NCBI GenBank assembly: GCA_965247075.1 | Contig: CBDFGK010000001.1 | Span: forward strand, 1,322 to 65,321 | Length of the DNA: 64,000 nt | From: Halieaceae bacterium | Lineage (GTDB): Bacteria > Pseudomonadota > Gammaproteobacteria > Pseudomonadales > Halieaceae | Direction of reading: 5' to 3' | Position numbers and translations under genes: made by a program | Part shown: piece after piece, positions 22,597 to 31,029 of the stretch | How positions within the stretch are numbered: the stretch's first letter is position 1 | How the letters are laid out: each line of letters begins with the position of its first letter | The notes under the pieces: generated by a model | What the model was told of the DNA's origin: nothing | What the model saw: the letters and a program-made list of their open reading frames with translations, nothing else | Databases searched by the model: none

Positions 22597-23781
22597 ATGA
22601 GAAAAATATTGCTGTATTTACTGTTGCCGCCGGTGATCGCGCAGGCGGCGGTAGATATCGATAAGCGCGCGGCCCAACTGGCCAGGAAATACCCACTGGT
22701 AGATACCCATATAGATGTGCCCTACAGAATCAATCAACACTGGCAAGACGTAACCGTAGCTACCGCTGACGGACAGTTTGACTACCCTCGCGCAGTCGCT
22801 GGTGGCTTGAATATACCCTTTATGTCTATTTATACACCCGCCGCCAGTGAACTTGATGGCAGCGCTTATGCGCGCGCCAATATCCTCATAGACCAGGTGG
22901 AGGCCATTGTGCAACGCGCCCCGGACAAGTTTGCGCTGGTTCACTCCAGCACCTCGGCAATGGCCCAGTTTAAGGCTGGCAAAATTGCCCTGGCCCTGGG
23001 TATGGAAAACGGCGCGCCCATCGCCGGCGACCTGGACAGGCTCCGTCATTTTTATGGCAGAGGTGTGCGGTACATCACACTCGCCCACAGTCTCTCTAAC
23101 CATATCAGCGATTCTTCCTATGATGAGGTTGCCCTGTGGGAGGGACTCAGTCCATTTGGCGTGGAGCTCGTTGCGGCGATGAATGAGCTGGGCATGATGG
23201 TTGATATCTCGCACCTCTCTGACCAGGCCGCCCTGGAAGTACTGGCGGTGAGCAGCGCGCCCGTCATCGCATCACATTCTTCAGCCCGACATTTTGTGCC
23301 GGAATTTGAACGAAATATGAATGATGAGACCATAAGGTTACTGGCCGCTAATGGCGGCGTCATCATGATCAACTTCGGTTCAGGCTTCCTGACTGGGCCG
23401 GCCAATGACTACGGCAAAAAGTTCAAGCCGGCCGCAACCGCCTTTGCGCAGCAGCGCAAGCTCGCCGAGGAAAGCCCGGAAATGGTGGCCTTCGCCGAAG
23501 CCTACCGCAGTAAACATCCCTATCCCTTTGCCTCGGTAGCTGAGGTGGCAGACCATATAGACCACGTGGTGAAGCTGGTTGGCATCGAACACGTGGGCAT
23601 AGGCTCTGACTATGACGGGGTGGGGGATTCACTGCCTATTGGCCTCAAGGATGTCTCTCAATACCCCAATCTTATTGCCGAGTTGTTGCGCCGTAACTAC
23701 CGGGACAGTGATATCGCCAAAATACTGGGCGGCAATTTGCTGCGCGTGTGGAAGCAGGTAGAAGACCAGGCTAGGTCATGA
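22597..23781 (+). CDS. Membrane dipeptidase (peptidase M19 family), secreted
   Basis: It has a signal peptide. Motifs are DTHIDVPYR, ITLAHSLSN, DISHLSD, ASHSSAR and GIGSDYDG. Confidence 0.9.
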   Translation: MRKILLYLLLPPVIAQAAVDIDKRAAQLARKYPLVDTHIDVPYRINQHWQDVTVATADGQFDYPRAVAGGLNIPFMSIYTPAASELDGSAYARANILIDQVEAIVQRAPDKFALVHSSTSAMAQFKAGKIALALGMENGAPIAGDLDRLRHFYGRGVRYITLAHSLSNHISDSSYDEVALWEGLSPFGVELVAAMNELGMMVDISHLSDQAALEVLAVSSAPVIASHSSARHFVPEFERNMNDETIRLLAANGGVIMINFGSGFLTGPANDYGKKFKPAATAFAQQRKLAEESPEMVAFAEAYRSKHPYPFASVAEVADHIDHVVKLVGIEHVGIGSDYDGVGDSLPIGLKDVSQYPNLIAELLRRNYRDSDIAKILGGNLLRVWKQVEDQARS

Positions 23782-24086
23782 CTTCGCGTGCAATGATAGA
23801 AGATTTTCGAATAGTGTCGGCGGGTCACTGCGGTAGCGGTGCGATGCGCAATCTCATTTATCACTACTGCGGCCTGGATCTGGATGAAGGGGTAGTATTT
23901 GGGTTGGGAGCGGGCCTGGACGCGGTTTTTTCACCTATGAGAACGCCGAACCTCCCGATATGTTTTTTGGCCGCGGTTCGACCATGGAGGCTGATCTTGC
24001 TCGCACCATGGGGCTGCCGGCCCGCACGGTCAGCAGGTTGACATCAAGGGGTCCCAGCGTGACGGGCAGGCGTCTTTTCACAGTGA
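23778..24086 (+). pseudogene. Relic of a BtrH-N-like (C39-like peptidase fold) gene, frameshifted and 3'-truncated
   Basis: HCGSGAMRNLIYHYCGLDLDEGVVFGLGAGLD is the family N-terminus. The frame shifts at a T6 run (23926-23931) into FFTYENAEPPDMFFGRGSTMEADLARTMGL. Similarity then ends where the alr 3' end begins. Confidence 0.55.
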
Positions 24087-25169
24087 TTAGTCGACTAAAA
24101 CTCGTGGTACCCGGTTGTGCAGGCGGGTCATTATCTCGTAGCCGATGGTCTCGGCGTACCTGGCGACTTCATTGGCGCTCAGCTTTTCGCCCCAGAGAAT
24201 CACCTCGTCGCCAATAGTAACATCCGGTACATCGGTAACGTCTACGGTGATCATGTCCATGGAGACCCGGCCCACCAATTGTGCACGCTGGCCGTTGATC
24301 AAAACAGGCGTGCTGTTCCCCGCGTGACGGGGATAACCGTCCCCATAACCCACCGGTACGGTAGCGATGCGGCTGGGTTGTTGCGCCGTCCAGGCATTGG
24401 CATAACCTACCGATTCTCCAACCGCGATATCTCTCACCGCCATAATTTCCGATCGACAGGTCATCACGGCTTGCAGCTTGTCGGCTTCGGGGTGCGATTG
24501 AGAGAAGGGGGACTGTCCGTACAGCATAAACCCGGGCCGGTTCCACTGCGCCCGCGCTTCCGGCCAGCCCAGTAATCCCGGCGAGTTGGCTAATGAACAG
24601 GGGGCGTCAATGGTCTCCGTGTGAGTGCGAAACAGCCTGATTTGCTCACTGGTGAAATCCCGGTCCAGGTCGTCGGCACTGGCGAAATGCGTGGCCAATA
24701 CCACTTTATCGGCCACGTTCCGGCAGTTTGTAAGACGGGCAAATAACTGCTCGGTGTCGGCCGGCTCAAAGCCAAGTCGGTGCATTCCGGTATCAATTTT
24801 CAGCCAGCAGTTTATCGGTCGCGACAGGTTGGCCGCCTCCAGAGCAGCCAGTTGTATGTCGCTCTGTACCATTACCCAAAAATTGAGTGCGGCGGCGAGA
24901 GATAATTCCTCCACGTCGAAAAACCCTTCCAGCAGCAGAATGGGCTTTTCAATGCCTGCTTCGCGCAACTCCATAGCCTCTTCTACGCAGGCGACTCCCA
25001 GCGCTGGGGCCAGCGGCTCCAGGGCTCTGGCGATATTTATGGCGCCATGGCCGTAGGCGTTGGCCTTGACGATGGGCATAACCTGTCCTTCGCCACTGAG
25101 GGATTGGGCCACCGCAAAATTATGTCGCAGTGCGGTCAGGTTGATAATGGCGCGGGTGGGGCGGGACAT
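24087..25169 (-). CDS. alr: Alanine racemase
   Basis: PLP-Lys motif PIVKANAYGHG is present. The C-terminal beta domain has VSMDMITVD. Confidence 0.95.
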   Translation of the reverse strand: MSRPTRAIINLTALRHNFAVAQSLSGEGQVMPIVKANAYGHGAINIARALEPLAPALGVACVEEAMELREAGIEKPILLLEGFFDVEELSLAAALNFWVMVQSDIQLAALEAANLSRPINCWLKIDTGMHRLGFEPADTEQLFARLTNCRNVADKVVLATHFASADDLDRDFTSEQIRLFRTHTETIDAPCSLANSPGLLGWPEARAQWNRPGFMLYGQSPFSQSHPEADKLQAVMTCRSEIMAVRDIAVGESVGYANAWTAQQPSRIATVPVGYGDGYPRHAGNSTPVLINGQRAQLVGRVSMDMITVDVTDVPDVTIGDEVILWGEKLSANEVARYAETIGYEIMTRLHNRVPRVLVD

Positions 25170-26032
25170 TAGTAATCGTATTTATATTCAGAGAACAGGG
25201 ACTGTGCTTGCAACCAGATGTCGCCGACTGCTCCGTCGCCAACCGGCTCGCCATCCACCAGCACTACCGGCGCGATCTCTTTGGTTGAACTGGAAATCCA
25301 TACTTCATCAGCGTTGTGTAGCTCAGCCAGTGTAACGGGGCGTTCTTCGATCTGCAGGCTGCCTTCGGCGCGCAAAATTTCGATGAGTAACAGCCGCGTG
25401 ATGCCGGCTAGTATCTGGTGGTCGGTTTCTGGCGTATAGATGACACCGTCCTTCACCACGTAGACATTGCAGGCACTGGCTTCGGTCAGCTCGCCGGCCT
25501 CGTTATAGAGAATGGTTTCGTTGTTGCCTCCCGTATAACCCTGGTTGAAGTGCATGACATTGCCCAGCAGGGCGGTGGATTTTATATTGCAGCGCTTCCA
25601 GCGCATATCCTGACTGGTTGTCACCGTATAGGTCTTGGTGGTGCTTTTGTCTGCCACTGGCGAGGGCGGCGCCTCGAAAGTAAAGGCGAAGATAGTGGGA
25701 GCAACACCTTCTGGGTAGGCGTGAAAGCGGCGGCTGTCGGCACCGCGACTGACGTGCAGGTAAATGCCGAGATCATTGCCCTCGTTGCGTTCCATCAACT
25801 GCTCGCAGACTTCACGCCACTGGTCATCACTCCAGTCCAGACTGATATCGATAGCAGTCAGGCCGTTGTTCATGCGCTCTATATGGGCCGCAAATCCAAC
25901 CATCCTGTCATGGTAGGAGGGAATAACTTCGTAGATGCCATCACCAAACAGGAAGCCGCGATCCATAGGTGAAATTTTTGCCCGCTCCATTGGCAGGTAT
26001 TCGCCATTGAGGTAGACGATGCTCATGCTCAT
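25169..26032 (-). CDS. dat: Class IV aminotransferase, D-amino-acid (D-alanine) aminotransferase-like
   Basis: Motifs are RGFLFGDGIYEVIP and CNIKSTALLGNV, with a class IV fold length. The call of D-specific rather than branched-chain rests on context with alr. Confidence 0.75.
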   Translation of the reverse strand: MSMSIVYLNGEYLPMERAKISPMDRGFLFGDGIYEVIPSYHDRMVGFAAHIERMNNGLTAIDISLDWSDDQWREVCEQLMERNEGNDLGIYLHVSRGADSRRFHAYPEGVAPTIFAFTFEAPPSPVADKSTTKTYTVTTSQDMRWKRCNIKSTALLGNVMHFNQGYTGGNNETILYNEAGELTEASACNVYVVKDGVIYTPETDHQILAGITRLLLIEILRAEGSLQIEERPVTLAELHNADEVWISSSTKEIAPVVLVDGEPVGDGAVGDIWLQAQSLFSEYKYDY

Positions 26033-26868
26033 TCTCCAAATCCGGTCAGTCTTCGTAAGTCTTCGATAAGCCGCAGTCCTTCGCTGGCGGGCAGCCCGTC
26101 TTCCGTTAGTGTGTTCTCATGGGTAACTCCGTCAACACTGCCCCGCTGGGAAAGGTAATGCAAAAATTCCAGCGGCGCGATTTTCCCAAGCAAGTCCTCA
26201 CCCCGCCAATACCCAATAATAGCCAGCAGGCCGTAAGCTGCCCAATTGGATACGTCGGCGATCAACAATTCATCGCAGCCGGTGACCGCCGGGACAATGT
26301 CCAGTTTTTCTATCGCCGCGCGAATATTGCCCATGCCAATTTCATTGCCGCCGTCACCAATGGCGATGCTGGGGCAGGACGCGAGTTTCACAAAGTAGTC
26401 AAAGCAGGCACAGCGCTCGGTAATAACCTCGCCGCGCATATTGAAGTAGGTGCCTTGCGCCGACAGCCCCGGCCGTTCGATACTGATTACCACTTCCGGT
26501 TGAAATTGCAAAAGCGCTGCGCGTGTCTCCGCTTCCCAATCAGTGTGGCCACCCACGCTGATCTCATGCACTCGATAGGCGGGCTGTAAATGACCTGATA
26601 AGGGCTTGCCGCACACGATGATGGGATTTGCACCCATAGTCTCAAGACTCTGGTACAGCGCCATTGCGCCCACCGGGCCGTCTGTTTCAAAAGTGTCGGC
26701 TACCGGAAACCCGGTGCCGATAAGAACGGTTGCCGAGCTGTTTTTCAGATGTGTGGCAGCGCGCAGGAAATAACCGGGCTGCAGGGCACTTTGCACCTGC
26801 TTCATGCCGCGCAGGTTTCTGCTGACCATCAGGTCCTCAATGGTCTGGCTCAGGGCGAGATCATCCAT
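26029..26868 (-). CDS. DUF4392 protein (D-glutamate cyclase-like domain)
   Basis: The start was moved to ATG 26868 (MDDLALSQ...), which overlaps the pxpC stop by 8 nt. The track's longer N-terminus would overlap pxpC by 170 nt. Confidence 0.7.
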   Translation of the reverse strand: MDDLALSQTIEDLMVSRNLRGMKQVQSALQPGYFLRAATHLKNSSATVLIGTGFPVADTFETDGPVGAMALYQSLETMGANPIIVCGKPLSGHLQPAYRVHEISVGGHTDWEAETRAALLQFQPEVVISIERPGLSAQGTYFNMRGEVITERCACFDYFVKLASCPSIAIGDGGNEIGMGNIRAAIEKLDIVPAVTGCDELLIADVSNWAAYGLLAIIGYWRGEDLLGKIAPLEFLHYLSQRGSVDGVTHENTLTEDGLPASEGLRLIEDLRRLTGFGE

Positions 26869-27802
26869 CACAGGGCTCCGGGTGTACGCGGTGGAATCGA
26901 TGGTGGGCCAGATAAAACAGGTTGTGCGCAGCGGCGCTAGAAGTTTCTTCGAAATACACTGTGCCGCCCGGCATAAGTTGCGCAAGTCGCGCCGTATCCA
27001 TCGACAGGGCAGCGCCAATTTTCGGGTAGCCACCGATGGTTTGCCGGTCTTGCAGCAGTACTATGGGTTGGCCATCGGCGGGAATTTGAATCGCCCCCAT
27101 GCAGATGCCTTCTGACAGAATGCCCTTGATATCGTAGCGTATTGCCGGCCCCTCAAGTCGATAACCCATGCGGTCAGCCCGGTCAGTCACCAAGTATTCG
27201 CCGCTATAAAAGCGGCGTTTTTGCAGTTGCGAAAACTGCGCCTGTTGGTAACCGGGGATTACGCGAACGATGATATCCGAGGAGTAGGCCGGTTGCTCGG
27301 ATTCGGGCAGGGTCAGGCAGCCGGCATTGGCGCAGGGCCGGCATGCCAGCAGGTTGCCGGCTTCCAGCTTGCCGCCGTTGAGGCCGCCGACCCCCTCGCG
27401 TACCACAGTGGCCGTGCTGCCAAATTGGCTGGCTACCTGGAAGCCTCCCGCCACGGCCAGGTAGGCCCGGCAAAAGGATGTAGCAAAACCAATACTGATT
27501 TGATCGCCGGGATAAACCCGGTGACTGCGCCAGGATTGCTTCGCTTCGCCATTGATAGACAGGGGCAAGTCGCCACCTGCCAGGCAGATGAGGGTTGCCA
27601 GCTTTGCTTCACACTCAAGACCACCGAAGCTGACTTCCAGGGCGGTTAAATCTGACTGGTTATGAACCAGTCGATTGGCCCAGGCCATGGCCATGCGGTC
27701 CAGCGGGCCGCCGTTGGTCAGGCCAATGCGGTGTTGGCCGAAGCGACCACTGTCCTGCAGTAAGGTCAACATGCCCGGCTGCAGGATCGACAGGCCACTC
27801 AC
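26861..27802 (-). CDS. pxpC: 5-oxoprolinase subunit C (KipA / allophanate hydrolase subunit 2 family)
   Basis: 313 aa. MSGLSILQPGMLTLLQDSGRFG is present, with a cyclophilin-like family signature. Confidence 0.85.
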   Translation of the reverse strand: MSGLSILQPGMLTLLQDSGRFGQHRIGLTNGGPLDRMAMAWANRLVHNQSDLTALEVSFGGLECEAKLATLICLAGGDLPLSINGEAKQSWRSHRVYPGDQISIGFATSFCRAYLAVAGGFQVASQFGSTATVVREGVGGLNGGKLEAGNLLACRPCANAGCLTLPESEQPAYSSDIIVRVIPGYQQAQFSQLQKRRFYSGEYLVTDRADRMGYRLEGPAIRYDIKGILSEGICMGAIQIPADGQPIVLLQDRQTIGGYPKIGAALSMDTARLAQLMPGGTVYFEETSSAAAHNLFYLAHHRFHRVHPEPCDG

Positions 27803-28476
27803 AACTCGCCTCCCAATTCCAGGTAGCGGGCTTTACCGATTGCCTCGAAGCGTACCCGGTCGCCCACATTCACCGGCATGATCGGGTCGGCATCGGGATT
27901 AAACATGGCAGTTGGACACCGGCCAATAAGATTCCAGCCGCCTGGCGAGGGGGCGGGATAGACCGCGGTTTGTCGGTCTGCTATGGCCACAGCGCCGCGG
28001 GGTACTTTTTGCCGCGGAGTGCTGAGCCTGGGTGCCGCGATGCGTTCATCGACCTGGCCCAGATAGGCAAACCCGGGCGCAAAGCCAATTGCATATACCC
28101 GGTATTCCGTGGCTTGGTGCAGCTCGATAACTTTTTCGATGCTCAAGCCGGCATGGTTGGCCAGTGATTCCAGATCGGACCCGGACTCGGTGCTGTACCA
28201 GGCGGGCAGGCAGACCAATCGACCTTCTGTTTGCCGGCCGGATAACAGTGTTGCCAGGCATGCTTCGACTTGCCGGCGGACGCGAAAATGATCGGTACGC
28301 AACAGGTTGTAAATAACCAATATGGATGCGTAGGAAGGCACCAGGTCTACCAGGTCGCGCCCCAGAGCGGTGCTAATGGCCGTACTTGCCGCTTGCACCG
28401 CCCGGGAAGTTTGCGGACTGGTCTCTTCTCCCAGATAAACGATTAAGGCATCTTCACCGGCAGTACAGATACGCAT
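27799..28476 (-). CDS. pxpB: 5-oxoprolinase subunit B (KipI / allophanate hydrolase subunit 1 family)
   Basis: 225 aa. FAPGFAYLG and AVAIADRQTAVYP motifs are present. It has 4-nt overlaps with its neighbours. Confidence 0.85.
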   Translation of the reverse strand: MRICTAGEDALIVYLGEETSPQTSRAVQAASTAISTALGRDLVDLVPSYASILVIYNLLRTDHFRVRRQVEACLATLLSGRQTEGRLVCLPAWYSTESGSDLESLANHAGLSIEKVIELHQATEYRVYAIGFAPGFAYLGQVDERIAAPRLSTPRQKVPRGAVAIADRQTAVYPAPSPGGWNLIGRCPTAMFNPDADPIMPVNVGDRVRFEAIGKARYLELGGEL

Positions 28477-28485
28477 GATGGATAG

Positions 28486-29223
28486 CTAACCCAGCAGGGC
28501 GCGAATTTCTTGAATTGCCTGCACCCCTTCGATATTGTCGCCGTGAACACAAAGTGAATCGGCGCCAACCGGTAGTTGCCGGCCGCTGGCCGTAGTGACG
28601 GTGCCCTCGTTGCAGAGTTGCTCGACCTGGGCCAGCATTTTGGCGCGGTCGTGAACTGCGTCTGCCAGCCGTCGTGACACCAGTTTGCCGTCGTCGTCGT
28701 AACAGCGATCGGCAAATGCTTCAAACCATACCTCGACGCCGGCCCGGTCAGCTTCCTTGCGGTGCTGATCGATTTCGGGTGTTGCCTGTAGCATCAATGC
28801 CAGCGGACGATGGTACGCGGCGACGGCTTCCAAAATGGCATTGCGAACTGCGGGCGTCGCCATCATGTCGTTGTAAAGCGCGCCGTGGGGTTTTACGTAG
28901 CGCAGTTCGATACCGGCGCAGGCAGACATGCCGTCCAGGGCGGCCACCTGGTAGTGAATCTTGGCAATAATTTCTTCGCGGCTACAGTTCATGGAGCGGC
29001 GGCCAAAGCCCACCAGGTCGGGATAGGCAGGGTGGGCGCCCACTGTTACGCCGTGTTCGCCAGCCAGTTGCAGGGTGCGTTGTATCACCAACGGGTCGCC
29101 GGCGTGAAATCCGGTGGCCACACTGGCCTGGTCAATGTGGGGCATTACTTCCGCGTCCAGGCCCATGGTCCAGGCGCCGAAGCTTTCACCCAGGTCGCAG
29201 TTCAGTTTCATGGTATTACTCAT
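28486..29223 (-). CDS. pxpA: 5-oxoprolinase subunit A (LamB/YcsF family)
   Basis: LNCDLGESFG, ATGFHAGDP and VKPHGALYN motifs are present. Confidence 0.9.
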   Translation of the reverse strand: MSNTMKLNCDLGESFGAWTMGLDAEVMPHIDQASVATGFHAGDPLVIQRTLQLAGEHGVTVGAHPAYPDLVGFGRRSMNCSREEIIAKIHYQVAALDGMSACAGIELRYVKPHGALYNDMMATPAVRNAILEAVAAYHRPLALMLQATPEIDQHRKEADRAGVEVWFEAFADRCYDDDGKLVSRRLADAVHDRAKMLAQVEQLCNEGTVTTASGRQLPVGADSLCVHGDNIEGVQAIQEIRALLG

Positions 29224-29235
29224 GGCAGTATTTTT

Positions 29236-30030
29236 TCACAGGATGGCCAGCTTGCTGTTGGGCATATCTGTCACCAACATACAGCCGGGACTGTGGGTAA
29301 TGCAAAAGGGGGGCCTGGCGCTCTCAATGGCGACCTGCGGGGTAACGCCACAAGCCCAGAAAAGAGCTAGCTCATGGTCGTGAATGCTCACCGCGTCGCC
29401 ATAGTCAGGCGCAGCTATGTTGTCTATACCGAGCAGCGCTGGATCACCTATATGAACAGGCGCACCGTGCACCGATGGGAAGCGGGTACAAATCTGGATG
29501 GCGCGGATGGCATCCGCCGCTGCGAAGGGGCGCATGCTCACTACCATGTTGCCGGCGAAAGCTCCGGCGGCCTGGCATTCAATGTTGGTCCTGTACATAG
29601 GCACATTGGCGTCTTCGCTAACATTGCGCACATCCAGGCCATCCGCCAGCAGGGCCTCCTCAAAGCTGAAGGAACAACCCAGCGCAAATGTCACCAGGTC
29701 ATCGCGCCAAAAATCTTCGATGTGGTTTGCTTCCCCAACACATTGGCCGTCTTCAAAAATGCGGTAACTGGGTATATCGGTGCGAATATCGATCTCGCCC
29801 AGGCTGGGTAATGTGGTTTCACCGGCGGCGCTCGCACTGGTGATCAGCGGGCAGGGTTTGGGGTTCAGTTGGCAGAACTTTAGAAAATCTGCCGCCCAGT
29901 CGGCTGGCAGGATAACGATATTGCATTGCACAAAACCGGCCGCCAGGCCAGATGTATTACCGGTATGGGCGCCCGAGCGTATGCGTACTCGCAGGTCGGC
30001 GGGGGAGAGGGCTGGTAGCGATTCGGTCAT
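29236..30030 (-). CDS. DUF1445 putative hydro-lyase (D-glutamate cyclase family)
   Basis: 264 aa. [26 protein letters not shown] and CGVTPQ motifs are typical of UPF0317/DUF1445. Confidence 0.8.
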
Positions 30031-30174
30031 GGGCTAACTATAGCGCGGGAATCGCCCGTAGAGTTGAATTTATTGGCTCTTTTGAATTTCGTGTGGGGCA
30101 GGCAGGCTCGATAATCAGATTGATCATAAGTCAGACATTGGCATAATGGGCGCCCCGCAACCAAGAGAATTAAC

Positions 30175-31029
30175 GTGCCCGATCGCCAGACCCTTGAACA
30201 CCTGCTACATACACTCAGCCTTGAAAAGCTTGGAGACTATTCCTTTGTGGGCCAGAATACCCATCCCGACGGGCCGCGCTTGTATGGCGGTCAGGTGTTG
30301 GCGCAGGCGCTGCGGGCCGGCGTTGCAACCGTAGACGAGGACCGCGCTGTACACTCACAGCACGCCTGTTTTTTGCGCCCCGGCGACCCCGGGCTGCCGG
30401 TGGAGTTTGAGGTCGAAAATGCACGCGACGGCGGCAGCTTCAGTTCACGACGGGTAGTCGCCTCCCAGCAGGGCCGCATTATCCTGGCGAGTTCCCTGTC
30501 CTTCCAGGTCCCGGAGCAGGGCGATGAGCTGGAGTTTGACCTGCCGGCAGTCATTGGTCCGGACCACCTGGAGAGCGAGCGCGACCGATCACTCAAGGAC
30601 GACCAACTGTGGGCTGACTTTCAGATTGTGAACGGCCTCGATCTGGATGTGCGCGTTATTGAACCGGTAGACTGGGTTAATCCTCGGCCACGTGATGGCA
30701 TACTGCATGCCTGGATGAAGACCAGTGCTGCGCTGAGTGACGAGCGGGGTCTGCACGAAGCCTTGCTGGCCTATATATCCGATGCTTTCCTGGTCGACGT
30801 GGCGTTGATGCCCCATGGGCGCAGTTTCATGCAGGGCATGCAGACCGCCAGCCTCGATCATGCCCTGTGGCTGCATGGGCCATTCCGGGCCGACCAGTGG
30901 CTATTACTGGCAGCCGATGTACAAAGTGTAGGTGGCGGTCGCGGGCTGGGTCGCGGGCGTTTCTTTACCGAAGACGGTCAGCTGGTGGCCACCTGTATGC
31001 AGGAATCCCTGCAGCGGCGTCTGCTGTGA
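30175..31029 (+). CDS. tesB: Acyl-CoA thioesterase II
   Basis: It has a double hot-dog fold. Motifs are LEHLLHTLSLEKLGDYSFVG, LYGGQVLAQAL and SLDHALWLH. The start is GTG. Confidence 0.85.
   Translation: MPDRQTLEHLLHTLSLEKLGDYSFVGQNTHPDGPRLYGGQVLAQALRAGVATVDEDRAVHSQHACFLRPGDPGLPVEFEVENARDGGSFSSRRVVASQQGRIILASSLSFQVPEQGDELEFDLPAVIGPDHLESERDRSLKDDQLWADFQIVNGLDLDVRVIEPVDWVNPRPRDGILHAWMKTSAALSDERGLHEALLAYISDAFLVDVALMPHGRSFMQGMQTASLDHALWLHGPFRADQWLLLAADVQSVGGGRGLGRGRFFTEDGQLVATCMQESLQRRLL

Follow-up and report, generated by a model that had tools for sequence, protein, structure and literature searches.

Predicted D-glutamate cyclase halves, the 5-oxoprolinase PxpABC, Dat and Alr in one gene block of a Halieaceae bacterium without a detected glutamate racemase

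Why would a bacterium place both halves of a putative D-glutamate cyclase on either side of an ATP-dependent 5-oxoprolinase, and join these genes to a D-amino-acid transaminase and an alanine racemase? This question is raised by a 64,000-nucleotide stretch of a Halieaceae genome (the window, whose numbering is used throughout), in which the block at positions 24087-30030 consists of seven co-directional open reading frames (ORFs) on the minus strand, in the order DUF1445, pxpA, pxpB, pxpC, DUF4392, dat and alr. Our tentative answer, to which we give a probability of about 0.45, is that the block could be a vertically inherited housekeeping operon that serves as D-glutamate node in a bacterium lacking glutamate racemase (MurI), and that it may work as a valve and recovery loop around the D-glutamate pool. 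The genes and the region in front of them are the following.

30031-30174, no strand: divergent control region of 144 bp between the operon and tesB, the sole non-coding stretch upstream of DUF1445 and presumed promoter region of the operon
29236-30030, minus strand: DUF1445, first gene of the block, 264 amino acids (PF07286, 214.6 bits, cut-off 25; NF003969 'putative hydro-lyase', 394 bits, cut-off 324)
28486-29223, minus strand: pxpA (LamB/YcsF family), 5-oxoprolinase subunit (PF03746, 294.8 bits; PxpA subfamily NF003816, 331 bits, cut-off 213)
27799-28476, minus strand: pxpB (KipI-like), 5-oxoprolinase subunit (PF02682, 232 bits; PxpB equivalog TIGR00370, 168.9 bits, cut-off 145.55)
26861-27802, minus strand: pxpC (KipA-like), 5-oxoprolinase subunit with a GTG start (PF02626, 270.8 bits; TIGR00724, 235 bits, cut-off 230.2)
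26029-26868, minus strand: DUF4392, by homology a TON_0340-like two-metal enzyme (PF14336, 216 bits)
25169-26032, minus strand: dat, fold-type IV D-amino-acid transaminase (PF01063, 174 bits; top NCBIfam matches are D-amino-acid transaminases)
24087-25169, minus strand: alr, alanine racemase (TIGR00492, 362 bits, cut-off 168; PF01168 and PF00842)

The family assignments of all seven ORFs are unambiguous. The profile matches, together with the junctions, bear out the gene identities and the tight packing that had been given in a first-pass annotation of this DNA. Read from the sequence, DUF1445 and pxpA are separated by 12 nucleotides and pxpA and pxpB by 9; pxpB overlaps pxpC by 4 nucleotides (GTGA), pxpC overlaps DUF4392 by 8 (ATGGATGA), DUF4392 overlaps dat by 4 (ATGA) and dat overlaps alr by 1 (TAATG). 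The ATG at 26868 gives DUF4392 a length of 279 amino acids, which is the length of an identical database protein (P0001). Promoter-like and terminator-like matches within the block were not more frequent than in shuffled sequence.

The genome that contains the window (three contigs, 97% complete) was searched for its source of D-glutamate. The MurI model TIGR00067 had no match there, and none above the cut-off in any of the 25 Halieaceae genera compared; a MurI from the same order, used as tblastn query on the own genome, gave a best E value of 2.1. The Asp/Glu-racemase family PF01177 yielded only a spurious match of 18.7 bits inside PanB, and since the weak match recurring in all Halieaceae is PanB, a hidden MurI was ruled out. 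The MurD2/MurL route was rejected as well, because the Mur-ligase-family genes of the genome (MurC, MurD, MurE, MurF, Mpl, FolC and two that are cyanophycin-synthetase-like) include no second MurD, and the one MurD is canonical (389 bits). The two cyanophycin-synthetase-like genes are adjacent (C3:657147-659715) and have open frames of 987 and 614 amino acids. Both alr and dat are single-copy in this genome (tblastn) and located in the operon; the other class IV gene is only 23% identical to dat. Without MurI and with sole copies of alr and dat, Alr followed by Dat must supply the D-alanine and D-glutamate of the cell wall. Judged from gene content, it is thus well supported that both enzymes would be the anabolic source of these amino acids, beyond any catabolic use.

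For Dat, the first-pass annotation had named a branched-chain enzyme as the finding that would overturn its interpretation. The cut-offs of two NCBIfam models are not reached (TIGR01121, 238.6 bits against 277.45; NF005209, 239.8 against 320), yet these are the top matches, and the branched-chain models stay at or below 170 bits, well below the 238.6 bits of TIGR01121. The best PDB matches are all D-amino-acid transaminases, with 175 bits compared to 136 for the best branched-chain enzyme. An alignment to 3daa revealed that Dat keeps the residues matching Y31, R98, H100, K145 and E177 of the Bacillus YM-1 enzyme (here Y34, the R and H of SRRFH, the K of NIKST and the E of LTEAS). It thus has the catalytic Lys145 and Glu177 and the carboxylate trap Tyr31/Arg98/His100 that are characteristic for fold-type IV D-amino-acid transaminases. 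A branched-chain aminotransferase is therefore ruled out by the active-site residues and the solved relatives, and the enzyme is of the D-amino-acid type. In Alr, the lysine motif for pyridoxal phosphate (PLP), VKANAYGHG, is readable in the sequence.

The complementarity of MurI and Dat extends beyond the family; in the following tests genomes were counted without correction for phylogeny. In the other families of the order, a Dat homologue was present in 7 of 7 MurI-less genomes and in 2 of 9 MurI-bearing ones (p = 0.003). An even sample of 201 genomes from the class gave a similar picture, with a Dat-like gene in 118 of 134 genomes without MurI and in 27 of 67 genomes with it (p = 4e-12). 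Overall, MurI was detected in 67 of these 201 genomes and Dat-like genes (35-47% identity) were detected in 145, and Dat-based D-glutamate supply may be the majority state in the class. Among named cluster-bearing genomes outside the sample of relatives, 15 of 20 are without MurI. A general link of Dat with pxp and alr was ruled out, since the Dat genes (about 40% identity) adjoin neither pxp nor alr in 20 class-level genomes.

The prokaryotic 5-oxoprolinase PxpABC was reportedly described by Niehaus et al. in 2017. In the block, the genes for its three subunits are present and adjacent, one each of PF03746, PF02682 and PF02626; against the PxpC equivalog NF045499, pxpC scores 195.9 bits (cut-off 500), so that its membership is established at family level only. 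The own genome contains one pxpABC, the one in the operon (tblastn, with a single match for pxpA), and pxpA is single-copy in 29 of 30 genomes carrying the cluster, which rules out a specialised pxp paralogue. A Pxp paralogue is known from P. putida, where it acts on butyrolactam. That PxpABC would be the only Pxp-type oxoprolinase of the cell is well supported by these copy numbers.

DUF1445 is homologous to the N-terminal and DUF4392 to the C-terminal domain of the mammalian D-glutamate cyclase, and the mouse protein with both domains converts D-glutamate to 5-oxo-D-proline (PMC5339696). Here, the two domains are not part of one polypeptide as in a DGLUCY-type cyclase, they are encoded by separate genes 2.4 kb apart, with pxpABC between them. 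Nevertheless, the first-pass proposal that they are two halves of one function is borne out: they strictly co-occur, and fusions exist with either domain first. DUF1445 is absent from all 14 genomes of the order that are without DUF4392; it is present in both non-Halieaceae genomes of the order that have DUF4392 and in 5 of 5 Halieaceae relatives checked. An exhaustive profile search identified about 3,600 DUF1445 relatives (50% clustering), of which 20 long representatives were scanned for domains. In seven, DUF1445 is fused to DUF4392, with both domain orders represented; two of the fusions that we looked up are eukaryotic (Paulinella, Diaphanoeca). Five further representatives (P0170, P0197, P0226, P0237, P0245) carry DUF1445 at the C-terminus of a HyuA/HyuB-type (OPLAH-like) oxoprolinase, and three of these five are named as coming from metagenome-assembled genomes of Planctomycetota. 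The remaining eight are an MGMT DNA-binding domain (PF01035) with DUF1445 (three; P0126, P0141, P0158), NUDIX with DUF1445 (one), a PLP-dependent enzyme with DUF1445 (one) and DUF1445 without recognised partner domain (three). DUF1445 is thus tied to two non-homologous types of ATP-dependent oxoprolinase, and this is hard to explain without a shared metabolite. By analogy to the mouse enzyme, it is well supported that the DUF pair would have one function, tied to D-glutamate and to 5-oxo-D-proline.

The residues of both proteins were compared with solved structures. The closest PDB entries for DUF4392 are 4dwz/5gkx (E = 3e-25), and its E61, D63, E131, D172, E176 and D257 align with the metal ligands E59, D61, E115, D157, E161 and D246 of TON_0340; all six are invariant in 17 relatives. 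DUF1445 has the PDB relatives 2pif and 3db9 (E about 1e-79), and its AlphaFold2 model (m2bbb7877c5c2; pLDDT 89.9) matches only these folds of its own family; beyond the family there is only a weak match to the NrpR-like nitrogen-repressor protein MJ0159 (3nek; TM 0.39-0.46). Two cysteines are near-invariant among 119 diverse representatives, C119 in 112 and C227 in 110. Their motifs, GCSFSFE and ACGVTPQ, are each located at a strand-to-helix junction of the model, and a profile comparison of the two halves of DUF1445 aligns both motifs on each other (P = 0.0035), revealing a pseudo-repeat. This layout recalls the cofactor-independent two-thiol racemases, an analogy that is only a lead.

Both families also occur in other arrangements. 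One HyuA/HyuB-DUF1445 fusion gene is located upstream of sucCD and icd (L160, 3620-8062), and a bacterial DUF4392-DUF1445 fusion gene (L158, 2632-5472) starts 31 nucleotides behind a gene for a class I/II aminotransferase; fakA, dnaX and recR are nearby, and the latter locus is without pxp genes. A distant DUF1445 gene (39% identity; L162, 1386-6292) is part of the series aminotransferase, PF04199 cyclase, DUF1445, Nramp Mn transporter and arylmalonate-decarboxylase-like gene (Asp/Glu racemase family). In one Halieaceae genome, a divergent DUF4392 paralogue (28% identity; L018, 6345-12307, G005:C8) is present as a second copy beside genes for MarR, a major facilitator superfamily (MFS) transporter, RidA and a TonB-dependent receptor, a context that suggests a different role.

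A survey of co-occurrence across genomes, proposed in the first-pass annotation, was strongly positive for the Halieaceae genera, for further loci and for the DUF pair. For Halieaceae, 25 genera or related genomes were compared by fetching about 15 kb around each match and mapping the proteins of the window onto it. PF14336 is present in 24 of the 25 genera compared to 2 of 16 other families of the order, and in only 2 genomes of an even class-wide sample of 400. The seven-gene order is retained in 24 of the 25 Halieaceae genera, and it recurs with the same junction types and with protein identities of 50-85%. A scan of species-representative genomes gave at least 577 relatives, and loci were taken for the best 80. 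These best 80 belong to Halieaceae, Nitrincolaceae/Oceanospirillaceae (Marinobacterium, Amphritea, Neptunomonas), Thiotrichaceae (Thiolinea, Leucothrix, Cocleimonas), Alteromonadales (Rheinheimera, Bowmanella, Colwellia) and Oceanicoccus; the core DUF1445-pxpABC-DUF4392(-dat) is found in Nitrincolaceae, Thiotrichaceae and Alteromonadales. In the 85 loci whose flanking sequence was long enough on either side, all seven genes were found in order in 40, six genes with alr not adjacent in 26, the five-gene core DUF1445-pxpABC-DUF4392 in 9, a locus without DUF1445 in 7 and partial sets in 3. The 4-nucleotide overlap of pxpB and pxpC was seen in 77 of 95 loci, an overlap of pxpC and DUF4392 in 47 of 99 and the 1-nucleotide overlap of dat and alr in 32 of 51. 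Gene order and overlaps are kept in more than 100 loci (the 25 related genomes and the 80 further loci), and given this recurrence the arrangement is more than chance.

Variants of the block were found as well. DUF1445 is distant from the cluster in four Halieaceae genera and in Rheinheimera, and is present elsewhere in those genomes. In Amphritea, the locus also contains genes for a PLP-dependent enzyme, an AsnC regulator and a Sel1-repeat protein. In one MurI-less lineage without DUF1445 and DUF4392, the order is thrC-recJ-pxpA-pxpB-pxpC-phosphoribosyltransferase-dat-alr-prfB-lysS (L129, 5008-9958, G037:C1), showing that the link of pxpABC with dat and alr exists without the cyclase halves, among housekeeping genes. 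In Aestuariirhabdus (L025, 5751-6956, G028:C78), about 1.2 kb separate DUF4392 and dat, and an opposite-strand ORF of 141 amino acids without Pfam match lies in between; the genome with this insert keeps MurI.

These observations can be combined into a model with steps of decreasing certainty. By strong inference, Alr would convert L-alanine to D-alanine, and Dat would transfer the amino group of D-alanine to 2-oxoglutarate, giving pyruvate and the D-glutamate for the one canonical MurD. From its family membership and its copy number, PxpABC would reopen 5-oxoproline to glutamate in an ATP-dependent reaction. Homology, strict co-occurrence and the fusions point to DUF1445 and DUF4392 as a split D-glutamate cyclase, interconverting D-glutamate with 5-oxo-D-proline, to which DUF4392 would contribute the two-metal (Mn/Mg) site. 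In the least certain step, cyclase and PxpABC might jointly set and recover the D-glutamate pool: surplus D-glutamate, which a MurI-less cell could not racemise, would be closed to the inert 5-oxo-D-proline, and 5-oxoproline would be reopened at the cost of ATP, with the L-form as a certain substrate by analogy and the D-form as only a possible one. Most likely, judging from the genes present, the cyclase halves and PxpABC would manage ring closure and ring opening of glutamate and 5-oxoproline around the D-glutamate node. As the reactions of Dat and Alr run both ways, this gene set can likewise bring carbon and nitrogen of D-glutamate and D-alanine into central metabolism.

The valve and recovery loop uses known activities only, yet it raises the question of a futile cycle, and this is one of several points that weigh against it. 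Characterised 5-oxoprolinases are reported to be L-specific. If a cyclase and an ATP-dependent ring-opening enzyme act on the same enantiomer, a futile cycle results, and the last step of the model therefore needs kinetic control or another refinement. Distant DUF1445 proteins (37-42% identity) are found in unrelated contexts, which confines the oxoprolinase link to a subfamily. MurI was found in just 33% of the class sample, so that its absence is common in the background and the sample is a weak control, and we have dropped the claim that the absence of MurI is unusual; the enrichment is also uncorrected for phylogeny. Both DUF genes are missing from five genomes of the order that have Dat and no MurI, and some cluster genomes keep MurI, showing that Dat-based supply does not require the DUF pair and that the pair is not limited to it. 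A gene for a LysR-type regulator is inserted between DUF4392 and dat in Nitrincolaceae (L045, 9887-10774; L081, 9851-10744; L057, 12895-13845), suggesting inducible, catabolic-style control there. Finally, TON_0340 has been reported as a weak phosphatase and not as a cyclase (PMC5132392).

The neighbours of the operon were examined as well. The first-pass annotation had placed an M19 dipeptidase gene and a decayed BtrH-like gene immediately upstream. Both are present, however on the opposite strand and past the 3´ end of alr. The M19 gene (22597-23781, plus strand) is convergent with alr and encodes a signal-peptide-like N-terminus (MRKILLYLLLPPVIAQAAV); in the 25 related genomes the operon has no M19 gene next to it (a BtrH-like gene was not searched for there), and the dipeptidase was therefore rejected as an operon member. 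The BtrH_N ORF (23778-24041, plus strand; 87 amino acids) overlaps the stop codon of the dipeptidase gene by 4 nucleotides, scores 34 bits (cut-off 29.7) and has a match that is confined to the first 47 positions of BtrH_N; the ORF is either a truncated remnant or a relative of very short length. On the other side, tesB (acyl-CoA thioesterase II; 30175-31029, plus strand) is divergent from the operon and is the same neighbour in many Halieaceae loci. A second tesB paralogue with 45% identity is located about 36 kb away in the same genome. The conserved block has no transporter in or beside it, and an uptake operon was thus ruled out; likewise, no ORF for a ycsG-type Nramp Mn transporter or a KipR regulator was found within or beside 24087-30030.

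The futile cycle would vanish if the oxoprolinase itself handled both enantiomers. In that case DUF1445, with DUF4392, would be the D-specific ring-opening partner of the ATP-using PxpB/PxpC, in parallel to PxpA for the L-form, and the five-gene core would be an ATP-dependent 5-oxo-D/L-prolinase complex, whose D-glutamate would go to MurD or to transamination by Dat. The DUF genes bracket pxpABC, with pxpC and DUF4392 overlapping in nearly half of the loci (the 47 of 99 above), DUF1445 sits at the C-terminus of the non-homologous HyuA/HyuB oxoprolinase in the five clusters of Planctomycetota type, and such a complex would also account for Dat following the core in most loci. It agrees with ycsI, the DUF1445 gene downstream of ycsG in the ycsG/kipI (pxp) operon of B. 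subtilis (PMC10448178). However, DUF1445 lies far from the cluster in the four Halieaceae genera and in Rheinheimera, and the mammalian protein works alone, without ATP and in the ring-closing direction (PMC5339696); we regard this explanation as unlikely. An equally doubtful possibility is a catabolic or salvage route, in which D-alanine and D-glutamate, for example from peptidoglycan turnover, would pass via 5-oxo-D-proline to L-glutamate, a net ATP-driven D-to-L conversion with a stereo-inverting lactam step. All seven genes fit into one such linear pathway, a MurI-less cell has no racemase to turn D-glutamate back to L-glutamate, and the LysR regulator beside dat in Nitrincolaceae would suit it. 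A fusion of a cyclase-family domain with an oxoprolinase, moreover, yields a net reaction only with different enantiomers or changed stereochemistry, and the two near-invariant cysteines of DUF1445, at strand-to-helix junctions within a pseudo-repeat, are arranged in a way that is known for cofactor-independent racemases. Against such a route, Dat and Alr already bring D-glutamate back to central metabolism without a detour, alr and dat are the sole biosynthetic copies, and the block is without a conserved peptidase or transporter, the M19 gene not being beside the operon in the 25 related genomes. Mpl is present, which means that the stem tripeptide can be recycled whole. The mouse two-domain enzyme gave 5-oxo-D-proline, resolved against the L standard, and no L-glutamate, and humans excrete 5-oxo-D-proline (PMC5339696). 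The dedicated route from peptidoglycan stem peptides that the first-pass annotation had suggested is thus not borne out: MurI is missing, the sole alr and dat are anabolic, Mpl is present and no transporter or peptidase is conserved. What stands of that interpretation are the gene identities, the packing, the co-occurrence, the D-type aminotransferase and the pairing of the DUF genes. A bolder version seems improbable to us: DUF1445 might be a cofactor-independent two-cysteine lactam racemase that, together with DUF4392 as metal-dependent D-glutamate cyclase and an ATP-dependent oxoprolinase (PxpABC here, HyuAB in Planctomycetota), brings about an irreversible stereoinversion of glutamate and partly replaces glutamate racemase in MurI-less bacteria.

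It might also be that the genes are together without any metabolic coupling, only as a convenient housekeeping transcription unit, with PxpABC as housekeeping 5-oxo-L-prolinase, Alr and Dat for D-amino-acid supply and the DUF proteins acting on another small molecule; DUF4392 could then be a Mn-dependent phosphatase. This would agree with TON_0340, for which weak phosphatase activity only was shown (PMC5132392), with the many unrelated contexts of the DUF1445 family, with the DUF4392 paralogue among MFS, RidA and TonB-receptor genes and with the lineage in which pxpABC-dat-alr lies among unrelated housekeeping genes. We consider it very improbable, since the same gene set recurs over several orders with conserved overlaps, DUF1445 and DUF4392 strictly co-occur, independent fusions tie DUF1445 to DUF4392 and to a second, unrelated type of oxoprolinase, and the sole characterised two-domain protein acts on D-glutamate/5-oxo-D-proline (PMC5339696).

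Full-text searches of the literature found no account of a bacterial DUF1445/DUF4392/pxpABC/dat/alr unit, and one preprint goes no further than a count of split homologues of human GLUCM in gut bacteria. The components belong to known families; the operon, its connection to the loss of MurI and the second oxoprolinase fusion are undescribed as far as could be found. The operon gives DUF1445 and DUF4392 a concrete bacterial context, D-glutamate/5-oxoproline chemistry, with testable roles, and as a bacterial model it could help to explain why a D-glutamate cyclase is retained in animals. In Halieaceae (the OM60/NOR5 group, abundant marine bacteria) and in many other Gammaproteobacteria, the cell wall is apparently made without glutamate racemase and would depend on Alr and then Dat; MurI is often treated as a drug target, and large bacterial groups without it matter there. 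If the ring-closing and ring-opening enzymes are coupled, as a D-specific oxoprolinase or by stereoinversion, this would be a new piece of core amino-acid metabolism and of marine D-amino-acid cycling.

Several known systems share parts of this arrangement. The DgcN/DgcA pathway, by which marine Proteobacteria reportedly degrade D-glutamate (Yu et al. 2023, as cited in PMC12363236), resembles it in that D-glutamate is handled by marine Gammaproteobacteria; its enzymes are entirely different (N-acetylation, racemisation, deacetylation), and this operon contains no homologue of them. The Dat-dependent synthesis of D-glutamate (EC 2.6.1.21) of the Bacillus type and of M. smegmatis shares with it Alr followed by Dat and the canonical residues of D-amino-acid transaminases, and the Dat of M. 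smegmatis reportedly complements a murI deletion (Mortuza et al. 2018, as cited in PMC12363236). Here, in contrast, it is apparently the only route, in a Gram-negative family without MurI, and dat is joined to alr and to oxoprolinase and cyclase genes. The operon ycsF-ycsG-ycsI-kipI-kipA-kipR of B. subtilis, as described in PMC10448178 and PMC13274462, combines the pxp genes with the DUF1445 gene ycsI downstream of ycsG. Both operons thus have the three Pxp families adjacent and a DUF1445 gene, which is located 12 nucleotides upstream of pxpA here; in contrast to B. subtilis, our locus is without the ycsG Mn transporter and KipR, and DUF4392, dat and alr are added. In addition, MurI is present in B. 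subtilis, which served as control genome, and not in the host of this operon.

TON_0340 of Thermococcus onnurineus (PDB 4dwz; PMC5132392) belongs to the same fold family as DUF4392, and its six metal-binding Asp/Glu residues are kept. It is a stand-alone archaeal protein, reported to be a weak Mn-dependent phosphatase, whereas the context here points to glutamate/5-oxoproline chemistry. Another counterpart is the mammalian mitochondrial D-glutamate cyclase (DGLUCY, also C14orf159 or 9030617O03Rik; EC 4.2.1.48), which has the same PF07286 and PF14336 domains; the two domains are always found together in the genomes studied here, and the six acidic ligands of PF14336 are kept. In the bacterium the cyclase activity is predicted, and the domains are encoded by separate genes which bracket an ATP-dependent 5-oxoprolinase and share an operon with Dat and Alr. 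D-Glutamate is only disposed of by the mammalian enzyme, whereas the bacterial host needs this amino acid for its cell wall.

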